64,000 bases of DNA from Escherichia coli (GTDB taxonomy: Bacteria > Pseudomonadota > Gammaproteobacteria > Enterobacterales > Enterobacteriaceae): NCBI RefSeq assembly GCF_030013205.1, contig NZ_CP122648.1, one strand, 5' to 3'. Below are positions 8,328-40,296 of this stretch, in pieces. Under the pieces are notes generated by a model. The model saw only the letters and a program-made list of their open reading frames with translations, did not search any database and was not told the origin of the DNA. Position 1 is the first letter of the stretch. Every line of letters begins with the position of its first letter. The position numbers were made by a program, and so were the translations under genes.

Positions 8328-9175
8328 TTAGGGTTCCTGACGTAAATAAATAGCCCGATAACAAATACTCACCAGCACTGCACCGCCGATAATATTACCC
8401 AGCATCACCGGGAGCAGATTGGCGGTAATAAAATGGCTGACCGTCAGTGCCGGAAAATTGTCTGCGCTACTGTGCGCCAGTTGCCAGAAGGGGGAGGGGC
8501 GAAATGGCGAATGGCAATGGCGAACGGAATCACAAACAAATTGGCGATACAGTGCTCAAAGCCACTGGCGACAAACAGGGTGATGGGCAAAATCATGGCG
8601 ACGATTTTGTCGCATAATGAACGCCCGCAATAACTCATCCACAGCGCCAGGCAAACCATCAGATTGCACATAATGCCGAGGCTGACAGATTCAGTAAATG
8701 TATGATGCATTTTGCCCTCGGCGCAGTGTAAAACCGCGACTCCCCACATCGCGTTTTCACTCATCACCAGCCCGGAAAACCAGATTAACAAACTGAAACA
8801 GGCAATACCTGCCAGATTACCGCAGGCCACCAGAAGTGCATTAATCAGCCATGTTCGCCAGCTAATAACGCCCCGACTTTTTGCCATCACCGTCATTACC
8901 GACGAGGTGAACAGGCTGGTGCCGCAAACCGCCAGCAAAATAAAGCCGAGTGTAAAGCAAAGGCCACCCACCAGATGGGTTAATGCCTGTGAAGACGGGG
9001 CATCGGCGATAACGGAAAGGTAAAAAGTAAATCCGATCGCCATAAACACGCCAGCGGACATCGCCATTAAAAAGACCGACACTTTGCTGCGGGCAATTTT
9101 ATGGGCGGCAATCCGTTCAGCGATTGCCGCTTTTCTGGCGCTCAACTGCAAGTCGAAAGAGAGTTTGTTTCTCAT
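8328..9175 (-). pseudogene. focB: formate channel FocB (FNT family) with apparent -1 frameshift near 8485..8495
   Basis: ORF stops at 8444 after 243 aa; the conserved FNT C-terminus (FWQLAHSSADNFPALTVSHFITANLLPVMLGNIIGGAVLVSICYRAIYLRQEP) continues in another frame to stop at 8328. Confidence 0.65.
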
Positions 9176-9196
9176 GAATACTCCTGCAAAAGCAGA

Positions 9197-11209
9197 TTAC
9201 AACACCTCGCGAACCGAGATCCCCAGACGCTGCATTCGTGACAGCAGCGTGGTGCGCTTCATCCCTAATCGTGTCGCCGCGCCACGGGGCCCGGCAACAA
9301 TGCCATTGGTTTCTCGCAATACCTGAACAATGCGCTGACGTTCTTCTTCGTCATTCTCTGGCGTCGTCGGATGCAGCAACTGTGCCATTGAACTGCGAAG
9401 CGCTGAATCTTCATTTAGCGTCGGCAGTAAACGGCTTTGTCGGACATTAAGATGTAAATTCAGACTGTTACCGCGAGTCAGTAGTACCGCCCGCTCAATC
9501 ACGTTTTCCAGCTCGCGCACGTTGCCCGGCCAGTCCCACGACATCAACTGGCGTAGCGCCTCGGTCGGGATGGCGTCAATTGCGCGATTCATATGGCGCG
9601 CCATTTTTTGCGTGAAATGTTTTGCTAAAAGAGGGATATCTTCCGGACGGTCGCGTAGCGGGGGCAATTCCAGTGGGAAGACATTCAGGCGATAAAAGAG
9701 ATCGCTGCGAAACTGGCGATCTTCAACCATTTGCCACAAATCACGGTTGGTGGCGGCAATGACTCTGACATTTACCGGGATCGTTCTACTCCCGCCGAGA
9801 CGCTCAATCTCCCGTTCCTGCAATACGCGCAGCAGTTTAGGCTGAAGTTCTAACGGCAGATCGCCAATTTCATCGAGAAACAACGTGCCGCCATCGGCAA
9901 TTTCAAAACGGCCACGATGGGTATTAATCGCACCAGTAAATGCCCCTTTGTCATGACCGAATAACTCACTTTCCAGAAGACTGGCGGGGATGGCAGCGCA
10001 GTTGATTTTGACCAGTGGCTTGTCGCGTCGTGGGCTAAGTTGATGGATCGCTCTGGCGATCACCTCTTTGCCGGTTCCGGTTTCACCACAAATCAACACC
10101 GTACTGTCGCTCTTCGCCACAATATCTACCTGCTGGAGCAAATCTTCCATTGCCTGGCTTTGATAGATAATGTCACCGACGCCCAGATTCGAAAGGAGCT
10201 GCTCGCTAAGCTGGTGGTTTTCTTGCTGCAAGCTTTCCTGCAAATCGGTCATGCTGCGCCAGGCATCGGCATTGCCAACGGCAATAGCGATGCGATCGGC
10301 AATATGTTGTAGTAGCTGGCAGTTTTCCTCACTAAAGAGAGTGGAAGAGGTATGCGCCAGCAACAATGCGCCCGGTGTATGGTTGCCAAAGGTGAGCGGT
10401 ATAAGGAGCGCAGATTCGCAGCCGTTAGATGCAAGTAAGTGTAATAACGGGTCGCGTTGCCAGAGAAACAGATCGTCTGCACGGTGCGTCAAGGTCGGTT
10501 GTCGGGTTTGTAGCGTTTGTGTCAGCAATACACTTTCGCCAGGCATACAGCGTGGCAGACACGCACAATGTGAGGCAGAAAGATCGCTGCACCACAGGCT
10601 GAACTTCTCGTTCTTTCGATGATCGCCCAGTACCATACTGACTGAAGCCAGACCGAAAAAATGATGGATCTCACGAGCGACGTCAGCGATCAGATCGTCG
10701 AGATCAAGATGTGACAACACTGCATTAGTGATATCCACCAGTACCCGATGATGATCGCGATCTTTCTCCAGCAAACGCAGCGCCACCTGCTGTTCTTCAT
10801 CATTGAGCCATGATTGCAGAACCGGAGTGATTATGTGTGCCAGCCAGTTAAACAGTGTGCAATCCTGGGGAGTAAAACGACTGCCGTGGGTGCGAATAAA
10901 GCGTAGCTCCGCCATTCCACTACTGCCGAGAAGGACGGCGTGGCGCGAATAATCGACCATCTCACCCTGATACTCTGTTGTTGCCGTCACATCGCTGCCA
11001 TCATCATGGTAGCGGTAATAGAAGTTGCTTTTGAGAACATGCAGTTCAATAAGTTGTACCGGGCTGAACGGCGGCGGCAGCGGGATGAAGGCGCGTAATA
11101 AAGACGCCTTGCCGTGTTTCTGCGCTAACCGCTCCGCGAGCATTCCGTTTACCGCTTCAATTGTTATTCCTTGCGGCGGGGCAAACATCGCCTCGTCTGA
11201 CATAGCCAT
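9197..11209 (-). CDS. hyfR: sigma-54-dependent transcriptional activator of hyf operon
   Basis: ~670 aa, GAF-like N-terminus, AAA+ with GETGTGKE and GAFTGA motifs, C-terminal HTH. Confidence 0.9.
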
Positions 11210-11238
11210 CAACAGTCCTTATTAATGAGAAATCCTTC

Positions 11239-11652
11239 TCACGCAATTTTTCTGGCCATCAGATAGATGGCCGGTTCCTGCACAATTTCATCCAACAGAT
11301 GAATGAATTGAATGCTACGCGCCTGCCACACAGACGTCGCGTCATCCGCCAGTGGCACGAATGCCCGGGTCAACAGGGCGGTGTGGCTGGTGTCAATAAC
11401 AATCTCACCAAAAGTCATCACCCCCAGCATCTTACGTCGGGCTTGCTCCTCTTCGACCAGTGCAAGCCAATCTTCGTATTCCGTCAGTGGGCAGCGGAAG
11501 GCGACATTCAGACAATCAATCACGCCAACGTGATGGCCGATAGCCAACGAGTAATACATTACCTGGGAGCTGTGTTCCGGCATCTCGTCGCTACTGGCGA
11601 TAAATTTTTTTCGCAGCGTCCAGAAAACAATTTCCCTGCACTCCTCAGCCAT
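11239..11652 (-). CDS. hyfJ: hydrogenase-4 component J (HycH-like maturation/processing protein)
   Basis: 137 aa, position after hyfI. Confidence 0.85.
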
Positions 11653-12403
11653 GTAACCCCCGGAGAACGCGAAAGAGTTGCTGAACGATACTATTGAGAC
11701 GCGGATCGTCGGCTTCGCGCAACCAGGTGTTAACCCGATTTCCTGTGGGATCGTCGCTTAAATGGCGCAGGAGTCGATCGCAAATTTCTCGCCCTTGACG
11801 ATAGCCCGCCAGCCGCCTCGCTTCTCGCTCAATGGCGATACGCTGTGATGGCGGGATCTGCGGCCACAGCGGTTGCATGGTCACCCCGGTGGGATCGCGA
11901 TAATCCACCGCGTGAATCTTCTGTTGCAGCAAACCGAGCGCCACGGCGAAACCGTGAATGGTGGCGGCCGGTGTTGGCGGGCAGCCGGGGATCCAAACAT
12001 CAATGGGGACAATGGTGTCGCTGCCGCCCCAGACGCTGTAGAGATCGTGGAAAATACCGCCGCCGACACCGCACGCGCCGTAGGAAACACAGATTTTATG
12101 ATCGGGGGCAGACTCATACGCCCGAAGTGCAGGCATACGCATCGCCCGGGTGACTGCGCCAGTAAATAACAAAATATCGGCGTGACGCGGTGATGAAACA
12201 ACCTTAATGCCAAAACGTTCTGCGTCGAATACTGGTGTGATGGCGGCAAAAATTTCGATTTCACAGGCGTTGCAGCCGCCGCAATCGACGCGATAAACGT
12301 AGGCTGAGCGACGGATATCCTGTAGCAAATGCCGCTTCATCTTTTGCGTTTGCTCGTCCAGCGTGATGGGCTGGCTGACATGTTGTGTAAGCACTGGACT
12401 CAT
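11645..12403 (-). CDS. hyfI: hydrogenase-4 small subunit (NuoB-like)
   Basis: 252 aa with CxxC...GCPP motifs typical of NuoB/HycG. Confidence 0.9.
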
Positions 12404-12945
12404 AGCTGCTCCTTAGCCACCAGCGGTACATCTGTGTTGTCGTTAATCAGCGTCGCGTGTTGTTTGCATTCCGGGCAGACGCTCACTTGCGCCCGCAACA
12501 TTTCGCGGTTTTGTGGCGCATTTTGTTGCTGTGCCAACAGTTCTGCAGCCAGTGCGACGGTTTTTTGCGGGGCAAACGGGCGTTCGCAACGGCTGCAGCG
12601 TTGTAGATGGAACGTCGCGCGGGTATAGAGATCGGCTTTATTGGTGACGGTCAGTTCAAAGTTATTGGTAAGCTGGATGGCTCTGGTCGGGCACACTTCT
12701 TCACAACGTCCGCAGTAAATACAACGCCCCAGATAGAGCTGCCAGGTGCGCGAATTTTGCTGGTCGTTGGTCTGGATAGTCAGCGCATTTGCCGGACAAG
12801 CACAGGCGCAGGCACCGCAGGCAATACATTGGCTGGGCATCAGGTCCGGTTTCCCGCGAAAGCCTGGGCTGACCTCCAGTGGCGCGAAGGGATATTTCAC
12901 CGTCGCGGTTCCGGCGCGCATAATAGTTTTAAGTAACTTCAGCAT
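12400..12945 (-). CDS. hyfH: hydrogenase-4 ferredoxin-like subunit
   Basis: 181 aa with two CxxCxxCxxxCP 4Fe-4S motifs. Confidence 0.9.
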
Positions 12946-12954
12946 TTTCTGTCC

Positions 12955-25361: not shown

Positions 25362-26070
25362 TGCACAGAAAACCCCCAGCTAGGCTGGGGGTTCCGGAAA
25401 GCTTTCAGCTTTGAGCCAGTTATTAAAACCCCTTTTGATTTGTTAAAACACCTTGCGGTCTGGCAACTGCAAGTGTCAAACAAGAAATCAAAAGGGGGTC
25501 CCAATGGGGAACGAAAAGAGCTTAGCGCACACCCGATGGAACTGTAAATATCACATAGTTTTTGCGCCAAAATACCGAAGACAGGTGTTCTACAGAGAGA
25601 AGCGTAGAGCAATAGGCAGTATTTTGAGAAAGCTGTGTGAGTGGAAAAGCGTACGGATTCTGGAAGCTGAATGCTGTGCAGATCATATCCATATGCTTGT
25701 GGAGATCCCGCCCAAAATGAGCGTATCCGGGTTTATGGGATATCTGAAAGGGAAAAGCAGTCTGATGCTTTACGAGCAGTTTGGTGATTTGAAATTCAAA
25801 TACAGGAACAGGGAGTTCTGGTGCAGAGGGTACTACGTCGATACAGTGGGTAAGAACACGGCGAAGATACAGGATTACATAAAGCACCAGCTTGAAGAGG
25901 ATAAAATGGGAGAGCAGTTATCGATTCCCTATCCGGGCAGCCCGTTTACGGGCCGTAAGTAACGAAGTTGGATGCAAATGTCAGATCGTGTGCGCCTGTT
26001 AGGGCGCGGCTGGTAAGAGAGCCTTATAGGCGCATTTGAAAAACCTCCGGCTATGCCGGAGGATATTTAT
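25362..26070 (+). mobile_element. IS200-family (IS200/IS605) insertion sequence, ~0.7 kb; boundaries approximate
   Basis: Perfect palindrome cccccagc-tag-gctggggg at 25373..25391, RBS-occluding pairing ccccttttgatt(25429..25440)/aatcaaaagggg(25486..25497), 152-aa Y1/HuH transposase, subterminal hairpin cctccggc-tat-gccggagg at 26044..26062. Confidence 0.8.
25504..25962 (+). CDS. tnpA: IS200 transposase TnpA (HuH Y1 family)
   Basis: 152 aa MGNEKSLAHTRWNCKYHIVFAPKYRR...HIHMLVEIPP (HuH motif)...catalytic Y region; ORF-track upstream extension discarded. Confidence 0.9.
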   Translation: MGNEKSLAHTRWNCKYHIVFAPKYRRQVFYREKRRAIGSILRKLCEWKSVRILEAECCADHIHMLVEIPPKMSVSGFMGYLKGKSSLMLYEQFGDLKFKYRNREFWCRGYYVDTVGKNTAKIQDYIKHQLEEDKMGEQLSIPYPGSPFTGRK

Positions 26071-26091: not shown

Positions 26092-26107
26092 GTGCGTCGG
26101 CAGAAAA
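26092..26107. promoter_or_regulatory. PurR operator (pur box) of purC
   Basis: ACGCAAACGTGTGCGT, near-perfect pur box, ~145 nt upstream of purC ATG. Confidence 0.7.
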
Positions 26108-26143
26108 ATGCGATTTTAGCGGTAATTCGCACAAAATTTGTTT

Positions 26144-26198
<55 letters not shown>

Positions 26199-26250
26199 AC
26201 CAGACAGCAAAAGATTTTAAAACGTTAATTCACACCCAGGAGTGATAAAG

Positions 26251-26964
26251 ATGCAAAAGCAAGCTGAGTTGTATCGTGGTAAAGCGAAAACCGTATACAG
26301 CACGGAAAACCCGGACCTGTTGGTGCTCGAATTCCGCAATGATACGTCAGCAGGGGATGGCGCGCGCATTGAGCAGTTTGATCGCAAAGGTATGGTGAAC
26401 AACAAGTTCAACTACTCCATTATGAGCAAACTGGCTGAAGCGGGTATCCCGACTCAAATGGAGCGTCTGCTCTCCGATACCGAATGTCTGGTGAAAAAGC
26501 TGGATATGGTGCCGGTTGAGTGTGTCGTGCGTAACCGTGCTGCTGGATCTCTGGTGAAACGTCTTGGAATCGAAGAAGGTATTGAGCTGAACCCACCGCT
26601 GTTCGATCTGTTCCTGAAAAACGACGCCATGCACGATCCGATGGTCAACGAATCTTACTGCGAAACCTTTGGCTGGGTGAGCAAAGAGAACCTGGCGCGT
26701 ATGAAAGAGCTGACCTACAAAGCGAACGACGTGCTGAAAAAACTGTTCGATGATGCTGGTCTGATTTTGGTCGACTTTAAACTGGAGTTTGGCCTGTACA
26801 AAGGTGAAGTGGTACTGGGCGATGAGTTCTCCCCGGACGGCAGCCGCCTGTGGGACAAAGAAACGCTGGAGAAAATGGACAAAGACCGTTTCCGCCAGAG
26901 CCTCGGTGGCCTGATCGAGGCCTATGAAGCCGTCGCCCGCCGCCTGGGTGTACAGCTGGACTGA
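26251..26964 (+). CDS. purC: phosphoribosylaminoimidazole-succinocarboxamide synthase (SAICAR synthetase)
   Basis: 237 aa starting [28 protein letters not shown]. Confidence 0.95.
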
Positions 26965-27131
26965 TTTTTCTGCTCATCATCTTGCCGTGCAGCTGGCACG
27001 GCAAGACAACCGCTCTCGGAAGATGTGCATTGAACGCTCATTCCTCCGCCATTTCATCCCGCTTTCCTGTGGTAATCTTCCTCTGAACCACCTACGATCA
27101 TTTCTATAATGAATATATTGTTGAGGTATCT

Positions 27132-27995
27132 ATGCGTTGGCAAGGGCGACGTGAAAGTGACAATGTTGAAGACAGGCGCAACAGCTCTGGTGGTCCGTCA
27201 ATGGGCGGTCCAGGTTTTCGCCTGCCAAGCGGTAAAGGCGGGCTGATTTTACTGATAGTCGTGCTGGTTGCAGGTTACTATGGCGTTGATTTAACCGGGT
27301 TGATGACCGGACAGCCGGTTTCCCAACAGCAATCAACACGGTCAATTAGTCCTAATGAAGACGAAGCCGCAAAATTCACTTCGGTGATTCTGGCAACCAC
27401 GGAAGACACCTGGGGACAGCAATTCGAGAAGATGGGTAAAACCTATCAGCAACCGAAGCTGGTCATGTACCGTGGAATGACGCGCACCGGCTGCGGGGCG
27501 GGCCAGTCCATTATGGGACCGTTCTATTGCCCGGCGGATGGCACGGTTTATATCGATCTCTCCTTCTATGATGACATGAAAGACAAACTTGGCGCGGATG
27601 GCGATTTTGCCCAGGGGTACGTTATCGCCCATGAAGTCGGTCATCATGTGCAGAAACTGTTAGGCATCGAGCCGAAAGTTCGTCAACTGCAACAAAACGC
27701 GACGCAGGCGGAAGTGAACCGCTTATCTGTGCGTATGGAACTCCAGGCCGACTGTTTTGCTGGTGTCTGGGGGCATAGTATGCAGCAGCAAGGCGTTCTG
27801 GAAACCGGCGATCTGGAAGAGGCGCTGAACGCGGCGCAGGCCATCGGCGATGACCGTTTACAACAGCAAAGTCAGGGGCGAGTAGTACCAGACAGTTTCA
27901 CTCATGGCACTTCTCAGCAACGCTACAGCTGGTTTAAACGTGGTTTCGACAGCGGCGATCCGGCACAATGCAATACTTTTGGTAAAAGCATTTAA
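27132..27995 (+). CDS. ypfJ: putative neutral zinc metallopeptidase-like protein (uncharacterised)
   Basis: 287 aa, N-terminal TM segment, HEVGHH zinc motif. Confidence 0.85.
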
Positions 27996-28009
27996 CTTCC
28001 GGGGCAGGG

Positions 28010-30025
28010 ATGGCTGAACTAACTGCGCTTCACACATTAACAGCGCAAATGAAACGTGAAGGGATCCGCCGCTTGCTGGTGTTGAGCGGGGAAGAGGGTT
28101 GGTGTTTTGATCATGCGCTTAAGTTGCGTGATGCCTTACCTGGCGACTGGCTGTGGATTTCGCCGCAGCCAGATGCTGAAAACCACTGTTCACCCTCGGC
28201 GCTACAAACTTTACTTGGGCGCGAGTTCCGGCATGCGGTATTCGACGCCCGCCACGGCTTTGATGCCGCTGCCTTTGCGGCACTTAGCGGAACGTTGAAA
28301 GCGGGAAGTTGGCTGGTTTTGTTACTCCCTGTATGGGAAGAGTGGGAAAACCAACCTGATGCCGACTCGCTGCGCTGGAGTGATTGCCCTGACCCTATTG
28401 CGACGCCGCATTTTGTCCAGCATCTCAAACGCGTACTTACGGCGGATAACGACGCTATTCTCTGGCGGCAAAACCAGCCGTTCTCGTTGGCGCATTTTAC
28501 TCCCCGTACTGACTGGCACCCCGCGACCGGCGCACCACAACCAGAACAACAGCAACTCTTACAGCAGCTACTGACCATGCCGCCGGGCGTGGCAGCGGTA
28601 ACTGCTGCGCGTGGGCGCGGTAAATCGGCGTTGGCAGGGCAACTCATTTCTCGTATTGCGGGCAGTGCGATTGTCACCGCGCCCGCAAAAGCGGCAACGG
28701 ATGTACTGGCACAATTTGCGGGCGAGAAGTTTCGCTTTATTGCGCCGGATGCCTTGTTAGCCAGCGATGAGCAAGCCGACTGGCTGGTGGTCGATGAAGC
28801 CGCAGCTATACCTGCGCCGTTGTTGCATCAACTGGTATCGCGTTTTCCTCGAACGTTGTTAACCACTACGGTGCAGGGCTACGAAGGCACCGGACGTGGT
28901 TTTTTGCTGAAATTTTGCGCTCGCTTTCCGCATTTACACCGTTTTGAACTACAACAGCCGATCCGCTGGGCGCAGGGATGCCCGCTGGAAAAAATGGTTA
29001 GTGAGGCACTGGTGTTTGACGATGAAAACTTCACCCATACACCACAAGGCAATATCGTCATTGCCGCATTTGAACAGACGTTATGGCGAAGTGAGCCAGA
29101 AACGCCGTTAAAGGTTTATCAGCTATTGTCTGGTGCGCACTACCGGACCTCGCCGCTGGATTTACGCCGCATGATGGATGCACCAGGGCAACATTTTTTA
29201 CAGGCGGCTGGCGACAACGAGATTGCCGGGGCGCTGTGGCTGGTGGATGAGGGGGGATTATCTCAACAACTCAGTCAGGCGGTATGGGCGGGTTTTCGTC
29301 GCCCGCGGGGTAATCTGGTGGCTCAGTCGCTGGCGGCGCACGGCAGCAATCCTCTGGCGGCGACATTGCGCGGACGGCGGGTCAGCCGGATAGCAGTTCA
29401 TCCGGCTCGTCAGCGGGAAGGCACAGGGCGGCAACTTATTGCTGGTGCTTTGCAATATACGCGTGACCTCGACTATCTTTCGGTGAGTTTTGGTTACACC
29501 GGGGAGTTATGGCGTTTCTGGCAACGCTGCGGTTTTGTGCTGGTGCGAATGGGTAATCATCGTGAAGCCAGCAGCGGTTGCTATACGGCGATGGCGTTGT
29601 TACCGATGAGTGATGCGGGTAAACAGCTGGCTGAACGTGAGCATTACCGTTTACGTCGCGATGCGCAAGCTCTCGCGCAGTGGAATGGCGAAACGCTCCC
29701 TGTTGATCCACTAAACGATGCCGTCCTTTCTGACGACGACTGGCTTGAACTGGCCGGTTTTGCTTTCGCTCATCGTCCGCTATTAACGTCGTTAGGTTGC
29801 TTAATGCGTCTGTTACAAACCAGCGAACTGGCATTACCGGCGCTGCGTGGGCGTTTACAGAAAAACGCCAGTGACGCGCAGTTATGTACCACACTTAAAC
29901 TTTCAGGCCGTAAGCTGTTACTGGTCCGTCAACGCGAAGAAGCCGCGCAGGCGCTGTTCGCACTTAATTATGTTCGCACTGAGCGTCTGCGCGATCGCAT
30001 AACGCAATGGCAATTTTTTCACTGA
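28010..30025 (+). CDS. tmcA: tRNA(Met) cytidine acetyltransferase
   Basis: 671 aa, Walker A ARGRGKSA, C-terminal GNAT-like region. Confidence 0.9.
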   Translation: MAELTALHTLTAQMKREGIRRLLVLSGEEGWCFDHALKLRDALPGDWLWISPQPDAENHCSPSALQTLLGREFRHAVFDARHGFDAAAFAALSGTLKAGSWLVLLLPVWEEWENQPDADSLRWSDCPDPIATPHFVQHLKRVLTADNDAILWRQNQPFSLAHFTPRTDWHPATGAPQPEQQQLLQQLLTMPPGVAAVTAARGRGKSALAGQLISRIAGSAIVTAPAKAATDVLAQFAGEKFRFIAPDALLASDEQADWLVVDEAAAIPAPLLHQLVSRFPRTLLTTTVQGYEGTGRGFLLKFCARFPHLHRFELQQPIRWAQGCPLEKMVSEALVFDDENFTHTPQGNIVIAAFEQTLWRSEPETPLKVYQLLSGAHYRTSPLDLRRMMDAPGQHFLQAAGDNEIAGALWLVDEGGLSQQLSQAVWAGFRRPRGNLVAQSLAAHGSNPLAATLRGRRVSRIAVHPARQREGTGRQLIAGALQYTRDLDYLSVSFGYTGELWRFWQRCGFVLVRMGNHREASSGCYTAMALLPMSDAGKQLAEREHYRLRRDAQALAQWNGETLPVDPLNDAVLSDDDWLELAGFAFAHRPLLTSLGCLMRLLQTSELALPALRGRLQKNASDAQLCTTLKLSGRKLLLVRQREEAAQALFALNYVRTERLRDRITQWQFFH

Positions 30026-30098
30026 CTCCTTCAATTTTCTCCCATGGTCATTGTGAGTCAGCGGCGTAAAATTAATGACATCAGTTAAGGAGTTCGCC

Positions 30099-30797
30099 AT
30101 GAAACATGACCATTTTGTTGTTCAAAGCCCGGATAAACCTGCGCAACAGTTGTTACTGCTTTTCCACGGTGTCGGGGATAACCCGGTGGCAATGGGGGAA
30201 ATAGGTAGCTGGTTTGCACCGCTGTTTCCTGATGCGCTGGTGGTGAGTGTCGGTGGCGTGGAGCCGAGCGGTAATCCGGCGGGGCGTCAGTGGTTTTCGG
30301 TGCAGGGTATTACGGAAGATAATCGCCAGGCACGTGTGGATGCCATCATGCCGACGTTTATTGAAACGGTGCGCTACTGGCAGAAACAGAGCGGAGTAGG
30401 GGCTAACGCCACGGCGCTAATCGGTTTCTCACAAGGCGCGATTATGGCGCTGGAGAGCATTAAAGCCGAACCGGGCCTTGCTTCGCGCGTCATTGCCTTC
30501 AACGGACGCTACGCGAGCCTGCCGGAAACCGCGTCTACAGCCACGACAATTCACCTGATTCATGGCGGTGAAGATCCTGTTATCGATCTGGCGCATGCGG
30601 TTGCGGCGCAGGAAGCGTTAATCAGTGCCGGTGGTGATGTGACGCTGGATATCGTGGAGGATTTAGGCCATGCGATCGACAATCGCAGTATGCAATTTGC
30701 CCTGGATCACTTGCGTTATACCATTCCGAAACATTATTTCGACGAAGCGCTAAGTGGCGGTAAGCCTGGCGATGATGATGTGATTGAAATGATGTAA
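30099..30797 (+). CDS. ypfH: esterase/phospholipase-carboxylesterase family protein
   Basis: 232 aa starting MKHDHFVVQSPDKPAQQ; GFSQGA (GxSxG) nucleophile elbow. Confidence 0.85.
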   Translation: MKHDHFVVQSPDKPAQQLLLLFHGVGDNPVAMGEIGSWFAPLFPDALVVSVGGVEPSGNPAGRQWFSVQGITEDNRQARVDAIMPTFIETVRYWQKQSGVGANATALIGFSQGAIMALESIKAEPGLASRVIAFNGRYASLPETASTATTIHLIHGGEDPVIDLAHAVAAQEALISAGGDVTLDIVEDLGHAIDNRSMQFALDHLRYTIPKHYFDEALSGGKPGDDDVIEMM

Positions 30798-30802
30798 TAA
30801 TA

Positions 30803-30872
30803 GCCGGGTAGGCCTGATAAGACCGTATCAGGCATCATGGCCGGATGCGGCGTTAACGCCTTATCCGGCCAC
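30803..30872. repeat. REP elements (inverted pair)
   Basis: gccgggtaggcctgataagaccgtatcaggc ... gccggatgcggcgttaacgccttatccggcc. Confidence 0.75.
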
Positions 30873-30877
30873 TCAGC

Positions 30878-31078
30878 TTACTTCTTCGGTTGATCCTTTT
30901 TCGGCCAGTCGTCGTCATCGTCCCACTTATCGTTGAAATCACGATGCGGGGGAAGCTCCGGCTTGTTGGCGAGAAATTTCTTATGGTCGACGCGCTTGAG
31001 ATCTTTAATCACGTTCAGCAGGACGCCTACCAAAAAGACAATCACCAGAATCCACCAATATTTAGCCAGCCAGTCCAT
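30878..31078 (-). CDS. ypfN: small membrane protein YpfN (UPF0370)
   Basis: 66 aa [25 protein letters not shown]...acidic/basic tail. Confidence 0.8.
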
Positions 31079-31105
31079 GCTTATTTCCTCTTGCAGAACC
31101 ACTCA

Positions 31106-32233
31106 TCAGGCGACGAGCTGTTCCATGATACGTTGATACATACGGGCAAGTAGCTGCAGGTCGGCAGCGTTCACACATTCATTAATTTTATGAATAGTGG
31201 CATTGACCGGCCCGAGTTCCACCACCTGCGCCCCCATGCGGGCAATAAAGCGCCCGTCGGACGTTCCGCCTGTGGTCAGTAGCTGCGGTTTAATTTCATT
31301 ATAGTGCTCAACCGCGTTAACGACCGCATCCACCAGTTTACCTCGCGCGGTCAAAAATGGCTGCCCGGAAAGCCACCAATCCACCGTATAGCGCAGTTGA
31401 TGTTTTTCAAGCAGGGCAAGTACCTGCGCTTTGATCATCTCATCAGTCAGTTCGGTACTGAAGCGGAAGTTAAACTGCACAAACAGTTCACCCGGAATAA
31501 CGTTGTTACTGCCCGTTCCCGCCTGAATATTGGCAATCTGCATACTGGTCGCCGGGAAGAATTCATTGCCCTGATCCCACTCAATAGCCACTAATTCATT
31601 AAGGAAAGGTGCTGCGCGATGTACCGGATTGTCAGCCAGATGTGGGTAGGCAACATGCCCCTGCACGCCATGAATGGTGAGGTTGCAGGTTAACGATCCG
31701 CGACGACCATTTTTCACCACATCACCAACCACTTCGATACTCGACGGTTCGCCGACCAGGCAGTAATCGAGACGCTCATTACGCGCCATTAACGCTTCGA
31801 CGACTTTTACCGTACCGTTGTGGGCACTGGCTTCTTCATCAGAGGTGATTAGAAATGCCAGTCGACCTGCATGGTTGGGATGTTGTGCGACAAAGCGTTC
31901 TGCCGCTACCACCATCGCTGCCAGCGAGCCTTTCATATCTGCCGCACCGCGCCCGAATAACATACCGTCACGAATGGTGGGTTCAAACGGCGGATTGATC
32001 CAACGATCGGCGTCGCCAGGCGGCACCACGTCGGTATGCCCGGCAAAGGCCAACGTTTCACCTTGCCCACGCCATGCCCAAAAATTCTGCGTATCGGCAA
32101 AATCCATGCGTTCAACGGTAAAACCGATCGCCTGCAAACGTTCAATCAACAAAGCCTGGCATCCTGCGTCATCAGGACTCAGGGAAGGGCGGCGAATAAG
32201 CTGTTGTGTCAGCTCAATAACCGGGCACGACAT
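31106..32233 (-). CDS. dapE: succinyl-diaminopimelate desuccinylase
   Basis: 375 aa M20 peptidase family, matches DapE. Confidence 0.95.
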
Positions 32234-32236
32234 AGA

Positions 32237-32611
<375 letters not shown>

Positions 32612-32973
32612 TTATGAGAATAAATACTCATTTAAGAGTGAAAACATTTTGCCTGCAAATGATTATCAGGAAATATAACATTATCGAAGTATTCAAATTA
32701 ACAACTATTAAATAATATTAAACATTTTTAACGTAAACATTAAGAATATTCATCTTGTTATCTGTCTGTATTTTAACCAGAATTAAATCAGTATTAGATG
32801 CCGTATGAATATCTCGAAATGTTGCTGTGTATCACATACAAATCATCACCGCAGGACCATAGTATTTACATAAGGTTTGTCCCCCGGAGGTAGTCATCGC
32901 AGCAATCGAGTAAATTAGCTTCACCACGGTATATTGTTTCCGTAGAATACCCATAATTATAAGAGAGGTTGTT

Positions 32974-33033
32974 ATGATTGAACGTGAACTGGGGAACTGG
33001 AAAGACTTTATCGAAGTTATGCTTCGTAAGTAA
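32974..33033 (+). CDS. ypfM: small protein YpfM (19 aa)
   Basis: ATG ATT GAA CGT GAA CTG GGG AAC TGG AAA GAC TTT ATC GAA GTT ATG CTT CGT AAG TAA = MIERELGNWKDFIEVMLRK; strong RBS aagagagg 6 nt upstream. Confidence 0.7.
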   Translation: MIERELGNWKDFIEVMLRK

Positions 33034-33098
33034 TTCCTGAGACAAAGTACAAACAGCAAGAACCTGCTGAGCAGGTTCTTAATCGGAAAGTTGAAAAG

Positions 33099-33127
33099 GG
33101 CGACACATTGGCATGTCGCCTTTTTTA
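33099..33127. terminator. bidirectional rho-independent terminator (acrD and ypfM)
   Basis: Hairpin ggcgaca-cattggca-tgtcgcc flanked by A-run upstream and T-run downstream. Confidence 0.65.
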
Positions 33128-33131
33128 TTGC

Positions 33132-36100
33132 TTATTCCGGGCGCGGCTTCAGCGGGAAGCGGCGGCGCACTAGCACAAAGAACAGCGGCACGAAGTAAAT
33201 AGCCAGAATAGTGGCCGAAATCATCCCGCCCATTACGCCAGTACCCACCGCATGCTGACCACCGGAACCGGCACCCGTGCTGGTTGCCATTGGCAATACG
33301 CCGAAGATAAATGCCAGCGAGGTCATCAGAATCGGGCGTAAACGCTGACGGCAGGCGTGGAGCGTCGCTTCAAACAGGTCGTGGCCTTTTTGGTTCATCT
33401 CGTTAGCAAACTCGACGATCAGGATGGCGTTTTTCGCCGATAAACCAATGACCGTTAACAGGCCCACCTGGAAGTAAACGTCGTTTTCCAGCCCGCGCAT
33501 CCAGGTTGCCAGCAGCGCGCCGATAACCCCCAGCGGCACGACCAGCATTACCGAGAACGGCACCGACCAGCTTTCATACAACGCAGCCAGACACAGGAAT
33601 ACCACCAGCAAGGAAATGGCGTACAGCGCCGGAGCCTGCGCGCCGGAAAGTCGCTCCTGATACGACATCGCCGTCCACTCCAGACCAAAGCCGTTTGGCA
33701 ACTGCTTCACTAACGATTCCATAATATCCATCGCCGTACCGGTACTGACCCCCGGTGCGGCTTCCCCAACAATCTCAACCGCAGAATAACCGTTATAGCG
33801 TTCCAGACGCGGCGAGCCTGTTTCCCAGCGTGAGGTCGCGAAAGCAGAGAAGGGCACCATGCCGCCATCTTTATTTCGGACATACCAGAGATTGATGTCA
33901 TCTGGCAGCATGCGATATAGCGCAGCTGCCTGCACATAGACTTTCTTCACGCGACCGCGATCCATAAAGTCATTCACATAGCTCGAACCCCAGGCGGTTT
34001 GCAGTGTGTCGTTAATATCGTCGATAGCAACGCCCAGCGCCTGAGCTTTACGCTGGTCGATATCAATCTGCAACTGCGGACTGTCGTCGAGGCCGTTATG
34101 GCGCACACGGGTTAGCTCCGGGTTTTCCGCCGCCAGCGCCAGCAACTGGTTACGTGCTGCCATCAGCGCATCGTGACCCGCTCCAGCGTGGTCCTGCAAC
34201 TCCATATCAAAACCCGCAGAACTACCAAGACCGCTAATTGCTGGCGGGCTGCTGGCGATAACGCGAGCTTCTTTAATCTTGTTAAACGCCTTCGTTGCAC
34301 GCTCGATAATGGCAAACGAGGTGCCGGTCTTACTGTCGCGTTCGCTCCAGTCTTTCAGGCGGATAAACATTCTCGCCACGTTTTGCCCGTTACCCCCAGG
34401 GCCAGAACCAACGGTGGCAAACACCGACATGATGTTGTCTTTTTCATGGGTGAAGTAGTATTTCTCGATTTGCTCAACGACTTTCAGGGTCTGTTGTTGG
34501 GTTGAACCGCTGGGCAACTGTACCGAGGTAGTAAACATGCCCCGGTCTTCCAGTGGCAAGAACGACGTCGGCAAACGCAGGAACAGGAACACCATGCCGC
34601 CAAGCAGCAGGACATAAATCACAATCCAGCGCAGGCTACGGTGGAGAATTTTCGCCACCCCTTTTTCGTAGCGTTCGGCGTTGCGGTTAAACATCTGGTT
34701 AAACCAGGCAAAAAAGCCTTTTTGCCCGTGATGCTCACCCTTTTTCAGTGGCTTAAGTAGCGTGGCACACAGAGCCGGAGTGAGGATCATCGCTACCAGT
34801 ACTGACAGCACCATCGCCGCAACAATGGTAATAGAGAACTGGCGATAGATGGCACCGGTGGTGCCGCCGAAGAAGGCCATTGGTACAAATACCGCCGAAA
34901 GCACCATCGCAATCCCGACCAGTGCCCCCTGGATCTGCCCCATCGATTTACGTGTGGCTTCGCGAGGAGTGAGTCCTTCCTCACTCATAATACGTTCGAC
35001 GTTTTCCACCACCACGATGGCGTCATCCACCAGCAGACCGATCGCCAGCACCATTGCGAACATGGTTAAGGTGTTGACGCTGTAACCGAAGGCGTAAAGT
35101 ACGGAGAAGGTTCCCATCAACACCACCGGCACGGCGATAGTGGGTATCAGCGTGGCGCGGAAGTTTTGCAGGAACAGATACATAACGAGGAAAACCAGAG
35201 CGATAGCTTCCAGCAGCGTTTTCACCACGTCTTCAATGGAGGCTTTAACAAACGAGGTGGTTTCATACGCCACCTTGTATTCCAGTCCGTGCGGGAAATA
35301 CTGCGCCAGCTCGTCGAGACGATTGAGCACCAGCTCCGCTGTCGCCATTTCGTTCGCGCCGGAGGCCAGTTTTACCCCCAACCCGGAGGCTGGCTTACCA
35401 TTGAAGCGGCTAAGATAATCGTATTTCTCCGCCCCCATTTCGACGGTGGCGACATCGCCCAGCCTTACCTCTGAGCCGTCCTGATTCACCCGCAAGGTGA
35501 TATCGCGGAACTGTTCTGGTGTTTGCAGCAGTGACTGGGCGTTAATGGTGGCGTTGAGCGCCTGCTTATCGACGGAAGGCGTACCACCAAGTTGCCCAAC
35601 CGCAATCTGCGCGTTCTGTGACTCAATGGCATCAGTGACATCTTTAGCCGTCATCTGGAAACTGTTGAGTTTCGCCGGGTCCAGCCAGATACGCATGGAA
35701 TATTGCGAACCATAGGCATCGATATCCCCGACGCCATTCACGCGGCTTAACGGGTCCTGAATATTACTGGCAACATAATCGGCAATATCCTGTTTATCCA
35801 TCGAACCATCGGTAGAGACGAAGGCAATGGTCAGAATATTGGTATCGCCGGTTTTACGCACCGTCACGCCCTGATTTTGCACCGCCTGCGGTAACTTTCG
35901 CATGGCTGATTGCAGCTGGTTTTGTACTTGCTGCACGGCTTCGTCCGGATCGGTGCCTGCTTTAAAACTTAAAGTGACAGATGCCTGGCCGGTGCCACTG
36001 CTCTGAGACGACATATACATGAGATTATCGAGGCCGGTCATATTTTGCTCGATAACCTGGGTCACGGTGTTTTCCAGCGTCTGGGCCGATGCGCCGGGAT

Positions 36101-36245
36101 AGTTAGCGGTCACTCGCACATTCGGTGGCGCGAGATCGGGGTATTGTTCAACGGGCAATGAGAAAATCGCCAGGGTCCCTGTCAGACACAACAGGATTGC
36201 CAGCACCCAGGCAAAAATGGGGCGATCAATAAAGAAATTCGCCAT
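33132..36245 (-). CDS. acrD: RND multidrug efflux pump, aminoglycoside exporter
   Basis: 1037 aa, RND family, matches AcrD. Confidence 0.93.
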
Positions 36246-36315
36246 TAAAAGAGGACCTCGTGTTTCTGCGTATCGTTGTAGGCTTGACTTGCTTCACTGT
36301 AGCGGCAAGGTACGA

Positions 36316-36335
36316 GCCAATCGTGGAGAAAAAAA
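36316..36335 (-). promoter_or_regulatory. BaeR-box-like sequence in acrD promoter
   Basis: Minus strand TTTTTTTCTCCACGATTGGC resembles the reported BaeR box TTTTTCTCCATDATTGGC. Confidence 0.5.
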
Positions 36336-36408
36336 GGAGTTAATGTAAATTATCATGCCCTTTTATACTGAACTTTAAGGGCCAGTATTCTTTGGTCAGT
36401 CGGAGGCA

Positions 36409-38109
36409 TTACATCAGCTGACTTTCCTCACCCTCCGCGGAGCGAAAGCTAATACTCACTAACGTGCCGCCGCCGGAAGGTTGTGAAAAAGTCAGCGTCC
36501 CACCCAGCCGTTCCGCGCGCTCGCGCATGATATTCAGGCCATAATGGCCTTCGGGTTCTTTCGGTTCACCGATGCCAATCCCGTTGTCGCGAATATAGAC
36601 TGTGTGATTGCCATCCGGCGCGGTGACGCAGCTAACGGCGATTTCGCTGGCGTTGGCGTGCTTCATCGCATTCAACACCGCTTCGCGAATAATTTGCAAC
36701 AAATGCACCTGCATTTGCGCATCCAGCGCCAGGGTTGGCAGACGGCAGTCGAGGGTCAGTTTGGCGCTGGTTTGATTTTGTAACGTATCCAGCATTTCCC
36801 TCAACGCGGAGGGGAGATCCGCCTGCTGCAGCGTCAGGCGGAAAGTAGTTAACAGCTCGCGTAACTGCCGATAAGCATCATTCAACGCCTGGGAAAAATC
36901 GGCCATGATACTTTGTGCGGTGGCATTATCTTCCGGTATCGAACGCTTCAGTAACGTCAACTGGATACGTAAGTAAGAAAGTACCTGAGCCAGCGAGTCG
37001 TGCAATTCGCGGGCGATGGTCGCACGTTCTTCCATCAACAATAACTGCTGAAAATGCTTCTGCGCCTGATTAAAGTACAAACCGCGTCCCAGCATCGACG
37101 AAACGCTGTTAAGCAGCGGTTCTGATGATGAAACGTGACTATTTTGCCAGTGCAGTTCGCCGTAAACCGTCTCTTGCATTGTCACCGGTAAAATCTGCAT
37201 CGGCAATTCCGGGTTTGGCTGCCCTTCGCTAATCCGCCAGTTTTCACCGACATTTAACTCCAGATATTCAGCCGCTTCGTTGTCGCGCACAATCTGCAAA
37301 ATATGGCGGAAACAATGCACATCAATCTGGCTGGTGTTCAGCGCCTGCGAACACTGATACAACACCTCCAGGCGACGCTTGGCCTCGTGGAGATCGCGGG
37401 TCTTTTCTTCTACTGACGCCTCCAGCGAACGGTACAATTTATGCAGCTCGCTCGACATCTGGTTAAAGGTTTTGGCAAGCAGGCCAAGCTCATTCGGCAG
37501 GCTGGTATCCAGCGGTGGCGAGTCGAACTGCCCGTGTTCAATACGCTGACTGGCGGTAACCAGCTGATTCAGCGGGGCAACCACCTGATGGCGTATGCGG
37601 CGCAAAGTAAAAAAGACCAGCGTGAAAATACCGATGCCGCCAGCCAGGGAAATTGCCACCACCAGCAGCATTTTGCGTTCAGCGTAGTGCTGTAAAGCCA
37701 GCACGAACAGGTCTATCTGATTAACATAGTTATTAATATTGGCCTGATACCACGGCAAGTCGCCCTTGCTGAGCCGATTATTCATCTCCAGCCAGTTGGC
37801 ATTCAGATGCGCATAGCGGGTTTTTACTGCCTCTGGCACATACCAGACGTTGAGATTGGTTAATACCGGTGAATGCAGTGCCTGCTGAAATAACTGGCGA
37901 TGTGCATTGAGTTGTGGACTGCCACTTTGCAAGTCGTAGCCCAGGCGGTAACTCTGCATACGCAGCGATCCGGCAATATTGATAGCCTCAGCATCGCGCA
38001 AACTGCTCGCCAGAGTTAGCAGAGCGATACCCGTGGAAAGAATCGACAGCAGGACAATGTAAAAAAAGGCCCGGGCCAGACTGGCCGAGACGGGTCGTTT
38101 AACAATCAC
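36409..38109 (-). CDS. narQ: nitrate/nitrite sensor histidine kinase
   Basis: 566 aa from GTG (M)IVKRPVSASLARAFF; two TM, HAMP, H-box ELHDSLAQ, ATPase domain. Confidence 0.92.
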   Translation of the reverse strand: MIVKRPVSASLARAFFYIVLLSILSTGIALLTLASSLRDAEAINIAGSLRMQSYRLGYDLQSGSPQLNAHRQLFQQALHSPVLTNLNVWYVPEAVKTRYAHLNANWLEMNNRLSKGDLPWYQANINNYVNQIDLFVLALQHYAERKMLLVVAISLAGGIGIFTLVFFTLRRIRHQVVAPLNQLVTASQRIEHGQFDSPPLDTSLPNELGLLAKTFNQMSSELHKLYRSLEASVEEKTRDLHEAKRRLEVLYQCSQALNTSQIDVHCFRHILQIVRDNEAAEYLELNVGENWRISEGQPNPELPMQILPVTMQETVYGELHWQNSHVSSSEPLLNSVSSMLGRGLYFNQAQKHFQQLLLMEERATIARELHDSLAQVLSYLRIQLTLLKRSIPEDNATAQSIMADFSQALNDAYRQLRELLTTFRLTLQQADLPSALREMLDTLQNQTSAKLTLDCRLPTLALDAQMQVHLLQIIREAVLNAMKHANASEIAVSCVTAPDGNHTVYIRDNGIGIGEPKEPEGHYGLNIMRERAERLGGTLTFSQPSGGGTLVSISFRSAEGEESQLM

Positions 38110-38314
38110 ACGCGTCTTCTCCACAAAAAATCATTAATGTTCCAGTTCGCTGAAACGCAATTTAGTCAGTGATGGGATTATTTGATCTGCCACAGTTTAT
38201 AGCGAAATAGTTACTTATTCTGGGCACATGAACATTGCCGATTCCCCTGTAAGTCGGGTAATAACAACACTCATATAAAGAATAAGGTTTTTACAACCAA
38301 AAAAGAAGGTCGTT

Positions 38315-40296
38315 ATGAATCGTTTTATTATGGCCAACAGTCAGCAATGTCTGGGTTGTCATGCTTGTGAAATCGCCTGTGTCATGGCTCACAATGATGA
38401 ACAACATGTCTTGAGCCAACACCATTTTCATCCCCGAATTACGGTTATCAAACATCAGCAGCAACGTAGTGCAGTGACCTGTCACCATTGCGAAGATGCG
38501 CCCTGCGCCCGTAGCTGCCCTAATGGCGCAATCAGCCACGTTGATGACAGCATTCAGGTCAATCAGCAAAAGTGTATTGGCTGTAAATCCTGCGTGGTGG
38601 CCTGTCCATTTGGTACGATGCAAATCGTCCTGACACCCGTCGCGGCGGGCAAAGTAAAAGCCACGGCGCATAAATGCGACCTTTGTGCAGGGCGCGAAAA
38701 CGGTCCTGCCTGTGTCGAGAATTGCCCGGCGGACACGCGCTGCAACTGGTCACTGACGCCGCACTCTCTGGCATGGCGAAATCCCGCCGCTTGCGCACCG
38801 CACGTCAGGAGCATCAACCGTGGCATGCCAGTACCGCGGCACAAGAAATGCCGGTAATGAGTAAAGTCGAGCAAATGCAGGCAACGCCCGCGCGTGGCGA
38901 GCCGGATAAACTGGCGATTGAAGCGCGCAAAACCGGTTTTGATGAAATTTATCTGCCATTCCGTGCCGATCAGGCACAACGGGAAGCCTCGCGCTGCCTT
39001 AAGTGCGGCGAGCACAGCGTTTGTGAATGGACCTGCCCGCTGCATAACCATATTCCACAGTGGATTGAACTGGTGAAAGCCGGAAACATCGACGCCGCCG
39101 TCGAGCTTTCTCACCAGACCAACACCCTGCCGGAAATTACCGGACGCGTTTGTCCGCAAGACCGTTTGTGTGAAGGTGCCTGTACTATTCGCGATGAGCA
39201 CGGCGCAGTAACTATCGGCAACATTGAACGCTACATTTCAGATCAGGCGTTGGCGAAAGGTTGGCGTCCTGACTTAAGCCTTGTCACCAAAGTGGACAAG
39301 CGGGTGGCGATTATCGGTGCGGGTCCGGCAGGGCTGGCCTGTGCGGATGTTCTGACCCGCAATGGCGTGGCGGTGACGGTGTACGATCGCCATCCAGAAA
39401 TCGGTGGCTTGCTCACTTTCGGCATTCCTTCTTTCAAACTGGATAAATCCCTGCTGGCACGCCGTCGGGAAATCTTCAGCGCGATGGGGATTCACTTCGA
39501 ACTCAATTGTGAAGTGGGTAAAGATGTCTCTTTGGATTCGCTTTTGGAACAATACGACGCGGTCTTCGTTGGCGTAGGCACTTACCGTTCCATGAAAGCG
39601 GGTTTACCCAATGAAGATGCGCCGGGCGTTTATGACGCCCTGCCGTTCCTCATCGCCAACACTAAACAGGTGATGGGACTCGAAGAGCTACCGGAAGAGC
39701 CGTTTATCAATACCGCCGGACTCAACGTCGTGGTACTGGGCGGCGGCGACACCGCGATGGACTGTGTGCGTACTGCGCTGCGCCACGGCGCGAGTAACGT
39801 CACCTGCGCTTATCGTCGTGATGAAGCTAACATGCCAGGCTCGAAGAAAGAGGTGAAGAACGCCCGCGAAGAGGGGGCCAACTTCGAATTTAACGTCCAG
39901 CCGGTGGCGCTTGAGCTGAATGAACAAGGTCACGTTTGCGGGATTCGTTTCCTGCGTACGCGTCTTGGCGAGCCGGATGCCCAGGGGCGTCGGCGTCCAG
40001 TACCGGTGGAAGGCAGTGAATTTGTCATGCCAGCCGACGCGGTGATTATGGCGTTTGGCTTCAATCCGCACGGGATGCCGTGGCTGGAGTCGCACGGTGT
40101 AACGGTAGACAAATGGGGCCGCATCATCGCGGATGTGGAAAGCCAGTACCGTTATCAGACCACGAATCCGAAAATCTTCGCCGGTGGTGACGCCGTGCGT
40201 GGTGCGGATCTGGTGGTTACCGCAATGGCAGAAGGACGTCATGCGGCACAGGGGATTATTGACTGGCTGGGGGTAAAATCAGTCAAATCTCACTGA
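38315..40296 (+). pseudogene. aegA: anaerobically expressed oxidoreductase AegA (ferredoxin + GltD-like flavoprotein) with apparent 2-nt insertion frameshift near 38733..38737
   Basis: Two overlapping ORFs in different frames (38315..38857 and 38674..40296) together span 1982 nt; N-terminal part has 4 CxxCxxCxxxCP motifs, C-terminal part GltD/NAD(P)-binding; junction reads ...ENCPAD|acac|...ALQLVTDAALSG. Confidence 0.65.

Follow-up and report, generated by a model that had tools for sequence, protein, structure and literature searches.

The stretch of DNA analysed here, a 64-kb window of an Escherichia coli chromosome, contains three genes of anaerobic formate, hydrogen and redox metabolism, focB, hyfD and aegA, each of which carries a single lesion that breaks its reading frame (Table 1). 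Lesions were called by alignment to E. coli K-12, and the distribution of each allele was counted in 5,426 complete genomes. All three genes align to K-12 over their full length and at high identity (98.8% for focB, 98.4% for hyfD and 98.1% for aegA), and each has one indel or in-frame stop that breaks the frame, the pattern of point-lesion pseudogenes. Alignment and translation place the lesions (a 1-nt deletion, a TGC to TGA nonsense change and a 2-nt insertion, respectively) where the earlier note had put them. Its observation that the neighbouring operons are intact also holds: the assembly of strain ETEC4079 differs from the window by one base over the 64 kb, that of the focB lesion, and in its PGAP annotation all remaining window genes are intact, including the other 10 hyf genes, 17/17 eut genes, the pur genes, acrD and narQ. 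In ETEC4079, PGAP flags hyfD and aegA; in ETEC1701, it also flags focB. All ST1 genomes examined have a fourth pseudogene, pdeF, which lies upstream at ~3.6 kb from the start of the window. ETEC4079 is a porcine strain of the O139:H1/ST1 edema-disease clone with an ONT-only assembly, and its source project used ONT R9.4.1 and medaka without short-read polishing. A literature search for the name 'ETEC4079' returned no matches; the source study was reached indirectly, and the CP122xxx accessions were linked to it from strain numbers, host, country and date.

Table 1. Lesions and their surrounding genes in the window
Feature	Position	Strand	Basis
Frameshifted focB (formate channel), at the end of the hyf operon	8328..9175	-	K-12 alignment, one 1-nt gap
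G5 run (C5 on the coding strand; 6 in K-12 and ETEC4079), focB lesion	8490..8494	.	Sole base at which window and ETEC4079 differ
hyfR, J, I, H, G, F, E, C, B and A, all frames intact	9197..21956	-	PGAP annotation of ETEC4079 mapped on the window, and ORF list
hyfD, Hyd-4 antiporter-like membrane subunit, premature stop	16907..18346	-	K-12 alignment; PGAP 'internal stop'
TGA opal codon in place of Cys148 TGC (coding-strand C to A at 17903)	17903..17905	-	Translation
aegA, frameshifted	38315..40296	+	K-12 alignment; PGAP 'frameshifted' in ETEC4079
AC insertion, tandem dinucleotide duplication, GAC.GCG to GACACGCG	38733..38734	+	After K-12 nt 418

The hyf operon lies between bcp and yfgO in the order hyfA-B-C-D-E-F-G-H-I-J-R-focB, collinear with K-12. 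It contains the same 12 genes in the same order as the 'silent' hyfABCDEFGHIJR-focB operon of that strain (hydrogenase-4/FHL-2), at 98–99% DNA identity. Whereas all 12 frames are intact in K-12, the window carries both the focB frameshift and a stop in hyfD that is fixed in ST1. The stop, at codon 148 of 479, splits hyfD into a 147-aa fragment matching Pfam Proton_antipo_N and a 328-aa ORF matching Proton_antipo_M. The TGA allele was found in 17 of the 5,426 complete genomes, every one of them in the ST1 clade, where all 17 complete genomes have it. These carriers were sequenced on several platforms and come from at least five countries, and two of them, W13-16 and P15-25, are PacBio+Illumina assemblies; the 147-aa product also occurs in 99 collection blocks, short-read drafts among them, with focB intact in the places shown. 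The lesion is already on record, as PGAP annotates an 'internal stop' in ETEC4079, K_EC180, EC556, W13-16 and ETEC1701. We regard it as certain that the hyfD TGA is a real substitution and that it has become fixed in the O139:H1 ST1 clone, for which C444A (Cys148 to opal) is a clean marker. We envision that the change arose on the stem of this edema-disease clone and that truncation of the hydrogenase-4 antiporter-like subunit would disable FHL-2; through polarity, the stop probably also lowers expression of the downstream genes hyfE to focB. Judged from sequence, Hyd-4/FHL-2 can be assumed to be non-functional throughout the ST1 clone, with FHL-1 intact. In E. coli, hyf has been described as having low or no activity, lacking a HycI-type protease and playing little part in H2 production (PMC7654741). 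Loss of hyfD is likely tolerated because the operon is poorly expressed and without a maturation protease of its own while FHL-1 is intact, conditions under which we infer relaxed selection.

In aegA, the frame is lost at codon 140 of 659 and a stop follows at codon 181, so that the 4Fe-4S ferredoxin-like module (residues 1–140 plus 40 out-of-frame residues) is cut from the GltD-like Fer4_20/Pyr_redox_2 module. AegA and YgfT are GltD-like Fe-S flavoproteins of formate-dependent urate degradation; the domain structure and role of AegA have been described, and its function depends on formate and FDH-H (PMC8097209). The window gene likewise encodes both modules, but here they are separated by the frameshift. 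The exact 62-nt allele with the insertion occurs in 1 of the 5,426 complete genomes, ETEC4079, and besides the window nowhere else; the 16 other ST1 complete genomes are without it. The site lies outside homopolymers, and 10 further ST1 assemblies made with the pipeline used for ETEC4079 share the local sequence without the insertion. An exact-protein look-up of independent assemblies found neither the 180-aa nor the 540-aa product on record, a result that is uninformative and no evidence against the lesion, since the gene caller's choice of start may differ. The insertion is probably real, though it rests on ONT-only data. We interpret it as a recent dinucleotide-duplication frameshift of the ETEC4079 lineage, one that would leave the ferredoxin and flavoprotein modules uncoupled; this strain retains an intact copy of the paralogue ygfT.

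The focB lesion shortens a C6 run (K-12 nt 677–682) to C5. Codon 228 of 282 is the last in frame, and a stop follows at codon 244, giving a product of 228 native and 15 out-of-frame residues (243 aa versus 282 aa), whose Pfam Form_Nir_trans match ends at profile position 208 of 240. An exact 61-nt match to the C5 allele is present in nine scattered complete genomes among the ~3,640 that have the flank (0.25%). It is absent from 15 of the 16 other ST1 complete genomes and also from the ETEC4079 RefSeq record, though this record otherwise equals the window. Four of the nine carriers belong to a single ONT R9.4.1-only project (CP122xxx), where the allele is over-represented, and in ETEC1701 (ST1) it is accompanied by two other homopolymer deletions within 42 kb. 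The loss of one base from a C6/G6 run resembles the homopolymer errors of ONT R9.4.1/medaka assemblies, as does the share of CP122xxx genomes among the carriers. The homopolymer call, the mismatch with the near-identical ETEC4079 and the enrichment in ONT-only data together make an assembly error a serious possibility for focB, and for focB alone among the three lesions. In contrast to what such errors would give, the C5 allele is also seen in SPAdes-style and Logan assemblies, and the 64 kb of the window show no other homopolymer discrepancy. The same 243-aa form of FocB was found in 525 collection blocks, mostly short contigs (11,971 blocks for the matching intact allele), on haplotypes 22–72 SNPs apart; its occurrence across many haplotypes, in SPAdes-style as well as Logan assemblies, indicates that the run also slips in nature. 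The change from C6 to C5 in the window hence stems either from an error in the long-read consensus or from slippage that happened very recently, and a slip, if real, would have taken place in an operon already broken by hyfD. For the ETEC4079 collection, homopolymer frameshift calls from ONT R9.4.1-only assemblies are unsafe.

Were the same kind of error to account for the whole set, none of the three lesions would exist in cells. This reading draws on the lack of short-read polishing after ONT R9.4.1 sequencing and medaka, on the undercalled focB run at odds with the RefSeq record, on the three homopolymer deletions within 42 kb of ETEC1701, and on two private changes of ETEC4079, nfsA A6 to A5 and xdhA T4A2 to T5A1, the former a homopolymer deletion that shows the assembly not to be error-proof. 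ETEC4079 showed no homopolymer indels in comparisons with other ST1 genomes (42 kb) and with W13-16 (43 kb). For hyfD the reading is refuted, as the TGA is a substitution shared by 17 assemblies from at least five countries, PacBio+Illumina hybrids included, and by short-read drafts. The aegA insertion, moreover, lies outside any homopolymer and is not reproduced by the same pipeline in the 10 ST1 assemblies of identical local sequence, and we give a common origin of all three lesions in assembly almost no weight. The earlier note had offered a run of assembly errors as one explanation of the cluster, and what survives of that proposal is the doubt over focB; it fails for hyfD, and aegA represents a third, strain-private event. 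The same note had argued, correctly, that three kinds of lesion speak slightly against one error mode; the explanation lies in three separate events of different age.

It is hardly credible, too, that the lesions are recoded or functionally tolerated, with the hyfD TGA serving as a Sec codon or being read through, aegA and hyfD each working as two polypeptides, and the focB run being phase-variable. A Cys to TGA change is a Cys/Sec codon swap, but Rfam gave no SECIS match at E ≤ 10 between positions 17700 and 18100, and the fold of the 60 nt downstream of the stop (-14.3 kcal/mol, z = -1.07) was equalled by 24 of 200 shuffles. Both hyfD fragments are predicted by gene callers, and the aegA frameshift falls exactly at the domain boundary, leaving complete Pfam domains in both halves; however, neither the TTG at 17893, where hyfD translation could restart, nor the ATG of aegA ORF2 at 38674 is preceded by a Shine-Dalgarno motif. 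Contingency loci typically have tracts of at least 8 units, and their ON and OFF lengths are both common within populations. The focB run mutates recurrently, but at six bases it is short for such a locus, and C5 is found in only 9 of the ~3,640 flank-matching genomes.

The cluster had also been read as lineage-specific decay of a formate/hydrogen module, in which all three lesions would exist in the cells as the outcome of selection, relaxed or negative, on Hyd-4, FocB and AegA, much as in Shigella. Several observations fit this. The hyfD TGA is fixed in ST1, focB lies downstream in the same operon and would so be freed from selection, its C5 form is a real allele elsewhere, and pdeF is a pseudogene across the clade as well; AegA, for its part, depends on formate and FDH-H (PMC8097209). 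In S. flexneri, focB and fdhF are pseudogenes (PMC6156198), a further case of focB inactivation in a host-adapted E. coli lineage. The three lesions, however, sit at three phylogenetic depths, with hyfD marking the clade, aegA a strain and focB a single sequence, and the two latter are absent from nearly all of the other ST1 complete genomes (16 without the aegA insertion, 15 without focB C5). Decay of the module as a whole finds no support in the rest of the pathway, since fdhF, hycA-I, hypA-F, fhlA, hydN, focA, pflBA, ygfT, nrf and dms are all intact in ETEC4079. Shigella differs in the same respect: there, fdhF is lost and reductive evolution is genome-wide, whereas ETEC4079 retains fdhF, hyc, hyp, fhlA and focA-pflB. 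About 6% of the sampled CDS are flagged as pseudogenes, most of them phage or IS remnants, and with the core anaerobic genes intact, we reject Shigella-like reductive evolution. Coordinated decay, with several genes of one pathway lost in the same lineage above the genome-wide rate, was not what the three alleles revealed. Lineage-specific inactivation applies to hyfD only, in 17/17 ST1 complete genomes; the aegA lesion is private to a strain and that of focB is not even shared by ETEC4079. Taken together, we regard decay of the module as improbable.

The density of lesions leads to a similar view. Frameshift and nonsense lesions in otherwise full-length non-mobile genes numbered 4 in the 418 kb sampled, or ~1 per 100 kb; at this background the 32-kb span should contain 0.31 lesions, with P(≥3) = 0.004 before correction for a genome scan. 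Across a 5.18-Mb chromosome, ~0.6 windows with at least three such lesions are expected by chance, which also weighs against module decay, and with all PGAP pseudogenes as background (12 per 200 kb) P(≥3) rises to 0.30. As focB and hyfD share one operon, they are not independent targets. The cluster therefore exceeds chance only weakly. An origin in a mutator strain through mutS was rejected, as mutS is intact.

We favour, with a probability of roughly 0.8, three independent loss-of-function point lesions of differing age and reliability that fell by chance within 32 kb of a porcine O139:H1 ST1 chromosome, that of ETEC4079 or of a near-identical source. They are ordinary bacterial pseudogenes of mixed origin rather than the result of coordinated pathway loss. 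A causal order in which hyfD was lost first and selection on focB relaxed afterwards would connect two of the three events. The significance is small: apparent clusters of pseudogenes can mix a mutation that truly marks a clade, one that is private to a strain and a homopolymer that was likely miscalled, so that each lesion needs to be placed phylogenetically before it is read as decay of a pathway.

Also of note, ETEC4079 carries private changes in xdhA (nonsense), ygeV and hyuA (both missense), all of them genes of purine/urate catabolism. The aegA lesion could be part of a loss or remodelling of anaerobic purine/urate catabolism in this strain, its nearness to hyf being coincidental. Of the 5,426 genomes, ETEC4079 is the only one with any of the three changes (xdhA TTA to TAA, ygeV T463I and hyuA A82T), which lie within 8.3 kb, ghxQ is frameshifted in at least 14 ST1 genomes, hybrid assemblies included, and AegA and YgfT are annotated for formate-dependent uric acid utilization, in agreement with published work (PMC8097209). 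We nevertheless consider this connection unlikely, as the genes were grouped post hoc from an ONT-only assembly, the xdhA change falls at the kind of homopolymer junction where ONT artefacts typically arise, and ygfT, uacT, ygfK, xdhD and ssnA are intact. It would likewise be a long shot to take the focB C6 run as a recurrent hotspot of natural inactivation, or the private hits of ETEC4079 as the outcome of selection against purine/urate catabolism in a pig-gut pathogen. A true hotspot would suggest that E. coli has lost its second formate channel repeatedly, and possibly under selection, and under either reading, if true, what look like ordinary pseudogenes would become evidence that gene loss was adaptive. 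If upheld, the focB and urate leads would be modest pointers to adaptive gene loss in gut E. coli.

Codon-level alignment to the K-12 genes bore out all three lesions described in the earlier note, in focB, hyfD and aegA (see table). The three have separate histories: the cluster consists of a clade-fixed nonsense mutation that was already annotated, a strain-private frameshift and an unreliable homopolymer call, and its members are ordinary pseudogenes of mixed origin. The full-length state of the neighbouring genes also held, as annotation of the otherwise identical sequence of the porcine strain ETEC4079 shows no break in any of the remaining ten hyf genes or the 17 eut genes. The K-12 eut operon is interrupted by prophage CPZ-55, which is not present between the eut genes of the window.

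Lesions and other features of the window, of ETEC4079 (NZ_CP122643.1) and of related ST1 genomes; L numbers are retrieved loci
Feature	Position	Observation
focB lesion	codons 226-228/282	one C lost from CCT CCC CCC; stop at codon 244
focB remainder		Form_Nir_trans match up to profile position 208/240, final channel part lost (Pfam)
hyfD lesion	codon 148	TGC(Cys148)->TGA; 147/479 residues left
hyfD remainder		Proton_antipo_N fragment, then 328-aa Proton_antipo_M ORF (Pfam)
aegA lesion	after nt 418	AC duplicated, GAC·GCG->GACACGCG; frameshift at codon 140/659
aegA break		between 4Fe-4S ferredoxin-like module and Fer4_20/Pyr_redox_2 (GltD-like) module (Pfam)
eutA and eutB	window 56,919-59,695	adjacent
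hyfG SNP	window 13,315	codon 467, GAC->GAT, synonymous
IS200C (tnpA)	window ~25,450-25,965	bamC-purC gap 924 bp, vs 212 bp in K-12
W13-16 IS66 (tnpA/B/C)	L007 39,051-41,639 (window ~32,960)	yffB/ypfM interval
ETEC1701 homopolymer deletion	window-equivalent 36,329 (L008)	A7->A6, intergenic
ETEC1701 homopolymer deletion	window-equivalent 41,089 (L008)	T8->T7, ypfG frameshifted
K_EC180 homopolymer difference	window 23,296	one A8->A7
pdeF (yfgF, c-di-GMP phosphodiesterase)	L001 175-2417, ~3.6-5.8 kb upstream of window position 1	internal stop +/- frameshift
ETEC4079 nfsA	NZ_CP122643.1 3,345,081-3,345,802 (L011 45082-45803)	private A6->A5 deletion
hxpB	NZ_CP122643.1 2,340,093-2,340,762 (L010 40094-40763)	+1 frameshift
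Purine/urate changes	NZ_CP122643.1 945,874-954,194 (L028 5875-14195) and 927,850-929,216 (L029 13851-15217)	
SLATT-domain and reverse-transcriptase-domain genes	NZ_CP122643.1 4,340,107-4,342,006 (L012 40108-42007)	side by side, prophage adjoining

The window holds the purN-hyf-aegA-eut part of the E. coli chromosome, in reversed orientation relative to K-12, and its closest relatives are 17 porcine strains; two of these, W13-16 and P15-25, were published as edema-disease strains of type O139:H1 ST1, with both PacBio and Illumina data (PMC8798679). The window has no fully identical counterpart among the 5,426 complete RefSeq E. coli genomes. NZ_CP122643.1 (ETEC4079; pig faeces, Belgium) differs from it by a single base in all 64,000, at 8490-8494, where the window has G5 and ETEC4079 G6. 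In a 42-kb comparison that included four other ST1 genomes, the hyfG substitution is the sole SNP private to the window and ETEC4079, and this SNP and the aegA insertion, both common to the two, tie them together. The IS200C insertion between bamC and purC is present in every ST1 genome examined, and ETEC4079 carries a second copy adjoining aroA at 3.254 Mb; the IS66 insertion of W13-16 is found neither in the window nor in the other ST1 genomes examined.

The hyfD TGA is a real substitution. When 61-62-nt queries with the lesion at their centre were searched against the 5,426 complete genomes, it was matched exactly in 17, precisely the ST1-clade strains, and with one mismatch in every other matching genome. 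The carriers, whose origins include Belgium, South Korea, Japan and France, were sequenced on independent platforms, PacBio+Illumina genomes included, and PGAP labels hyfD ‘internal stop’ in each ST1 genome opened. In the public assembly collection the 147-aa N-terminal HyfD is indexed in 99 blocks, 36-40-kb draft contigs included, and focB is intact (282 aa) in the places shown. Selenocysteine at the TGA was not supported, with no Rfam match and a downstream fold z of -1.07. Upstream of the window, pdeF is a pseudogene in each of the five ST1 genomes examined, which adds a fourth, though clade-wide, lesion close to the cluster.

The aegA insertion is probably real; its one exact match among the 5,426 genomes is ETEC4079. 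Every other ST1 genome listed lacks the two extra bases, and so do the ten further ST1 assemblies made with the ETEC4079 pipeline. The insertion site is not a homopolymer; a comparison of ETEC4079 with its relatives over 42 kb gave no homopolymer indels, and one with the hybrid assembly of W13-16 over a further 43 kb gave no indels of any kind. On the other side, no truncated AegA products were found in independent assemblies, and ETEC4079 does have a private homopolymer deletion elsewhere, in nfsA; if real, this would be a loss of function in a nitroreductase gene, and if not, it is a fault of the ONT sequence. All 17 ST1 genomes share a fixed hxpB frameshift.

The focB lesion is the uncertain one, an unreliable homopolymer call. 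Its G5 form was matched exactly and at full length in nine of the 5,426 genomes, scattered over E. coli, four of them from one ONT-only collection (CP122xxx: ETEC4085, ETEC4089, ETEC1701 and ETEC1702); only ETEC1701 falls within the ST1 clade, without being sister to ETEC4079. A consensus error is suggested by the location in a homopolymer, by the disagreement with the otherwise identical ETEC4079 RefSeq record, and by the pipeline of the study that matches these genomes in strain numbers, host, country and date, a combination of Bonito, Trycycler and medaka on ONT R9.4.1 reads that lacked short-read polishing (PMC10151945). ETEC1701 carries two more homopolymer deletions in the corresponding 42 kb, and the three together, focB G6->G5 included, point to ONT consensus errors left in the assemblies of that project. 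A real slip to C5 is favoured by the recurrence of the same 243-aa truncated FocB in 525 collection blocks, where the corresponding intact allele has 11,971; the longest contig is below 200 kb in 510 of the 525, and SPAdes-style and Logan contigs are among the examples. Nine retrieved loci (L013-L021) carry it on haplotypes that differ by 22-72 SNPs in 3.7 kb, so the C6 run slips to C5 repeatedly in nature, and since L016 and L017 share a split yfgO, the lesion has been inherited in at least one lineage. Also in favour of a slip, the 64-kb window shows no second homopolymer discrepancy; its other G/C runs of at least six number only three. Taken together, we put the balance at roughly 60:40 for consensus error.

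The cluster had been read as decay of a formate/hydrogen module or as a run of assembly errors. The clade-fixed hyfD lesion and the unreliable focB call each lend part of this some substance; module decay is rejected, as the core genes are intact and only the accessory hyf operon is hit. Annotated as intact in ETEC4079 are fhlA, hypA-E, hycA-I, hydN and hypF; focA, pflB and pflA; fdhF and the nrf operon; and the aegA paralogue ygfT together with uacT. The hyf operon is described as poorly expressed, without a maturation protease of its own and with a small part in H2 production (PMC7654741). Breakage of hyfD could plausibly have relaxed selection on focB, the last gene in that operon. Shigella-like reductive erosion, also raised earlier, found no support: ~6% of sampled ETEC4079 CDS are flagged as pseudogenes, the majority prophage or IS remnants.

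Frameshift or nonsense lesions in genes otherwise of full length numbered nine in a 566-kb sample (11%) of the chromosome of ETEC4079, and four in 418 kb (~1 per 100 kb) with the target and purine regions left out. The expected number of point lesions in the 32-kb span is 0.31, giving P(≥3) = 0.004, and ~0.6 three-lesion windows per genome are expected by chance; with all PGAP pseudogenes as background (12 per 200 kb in the first four random samples), P(≥3) = 0.30.

Three further changes in ETEC4079 are each unique among the 5,426 genomes: TTA->TAA at codon 547 of xdhA, T463I in ygeV and A82T in hyuA. A role in formate-dependent urate degradation has been proposed for AegA (PMC8097209), and aegA, xdhA, ygeV and hyuA make four private ETEC4079 hits in formate-dependent urate/purine catabolism, a suggestive set, grouped post hoc from ONT-only data, that we regard as a lead rather than a result. 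Of these, the xdhA change may be an ONT artefact, given its position at a T4A2->T5A1 junction. A ghxQ frameshift, also in the purine/urate cluster, is common to at least 14 ST1 genomes, hybrid assemblies included. Finally, the adjacent SLATT-domain and reverse-transcriptase-domain genes of ETEC4079 may form a retron-type defence module.
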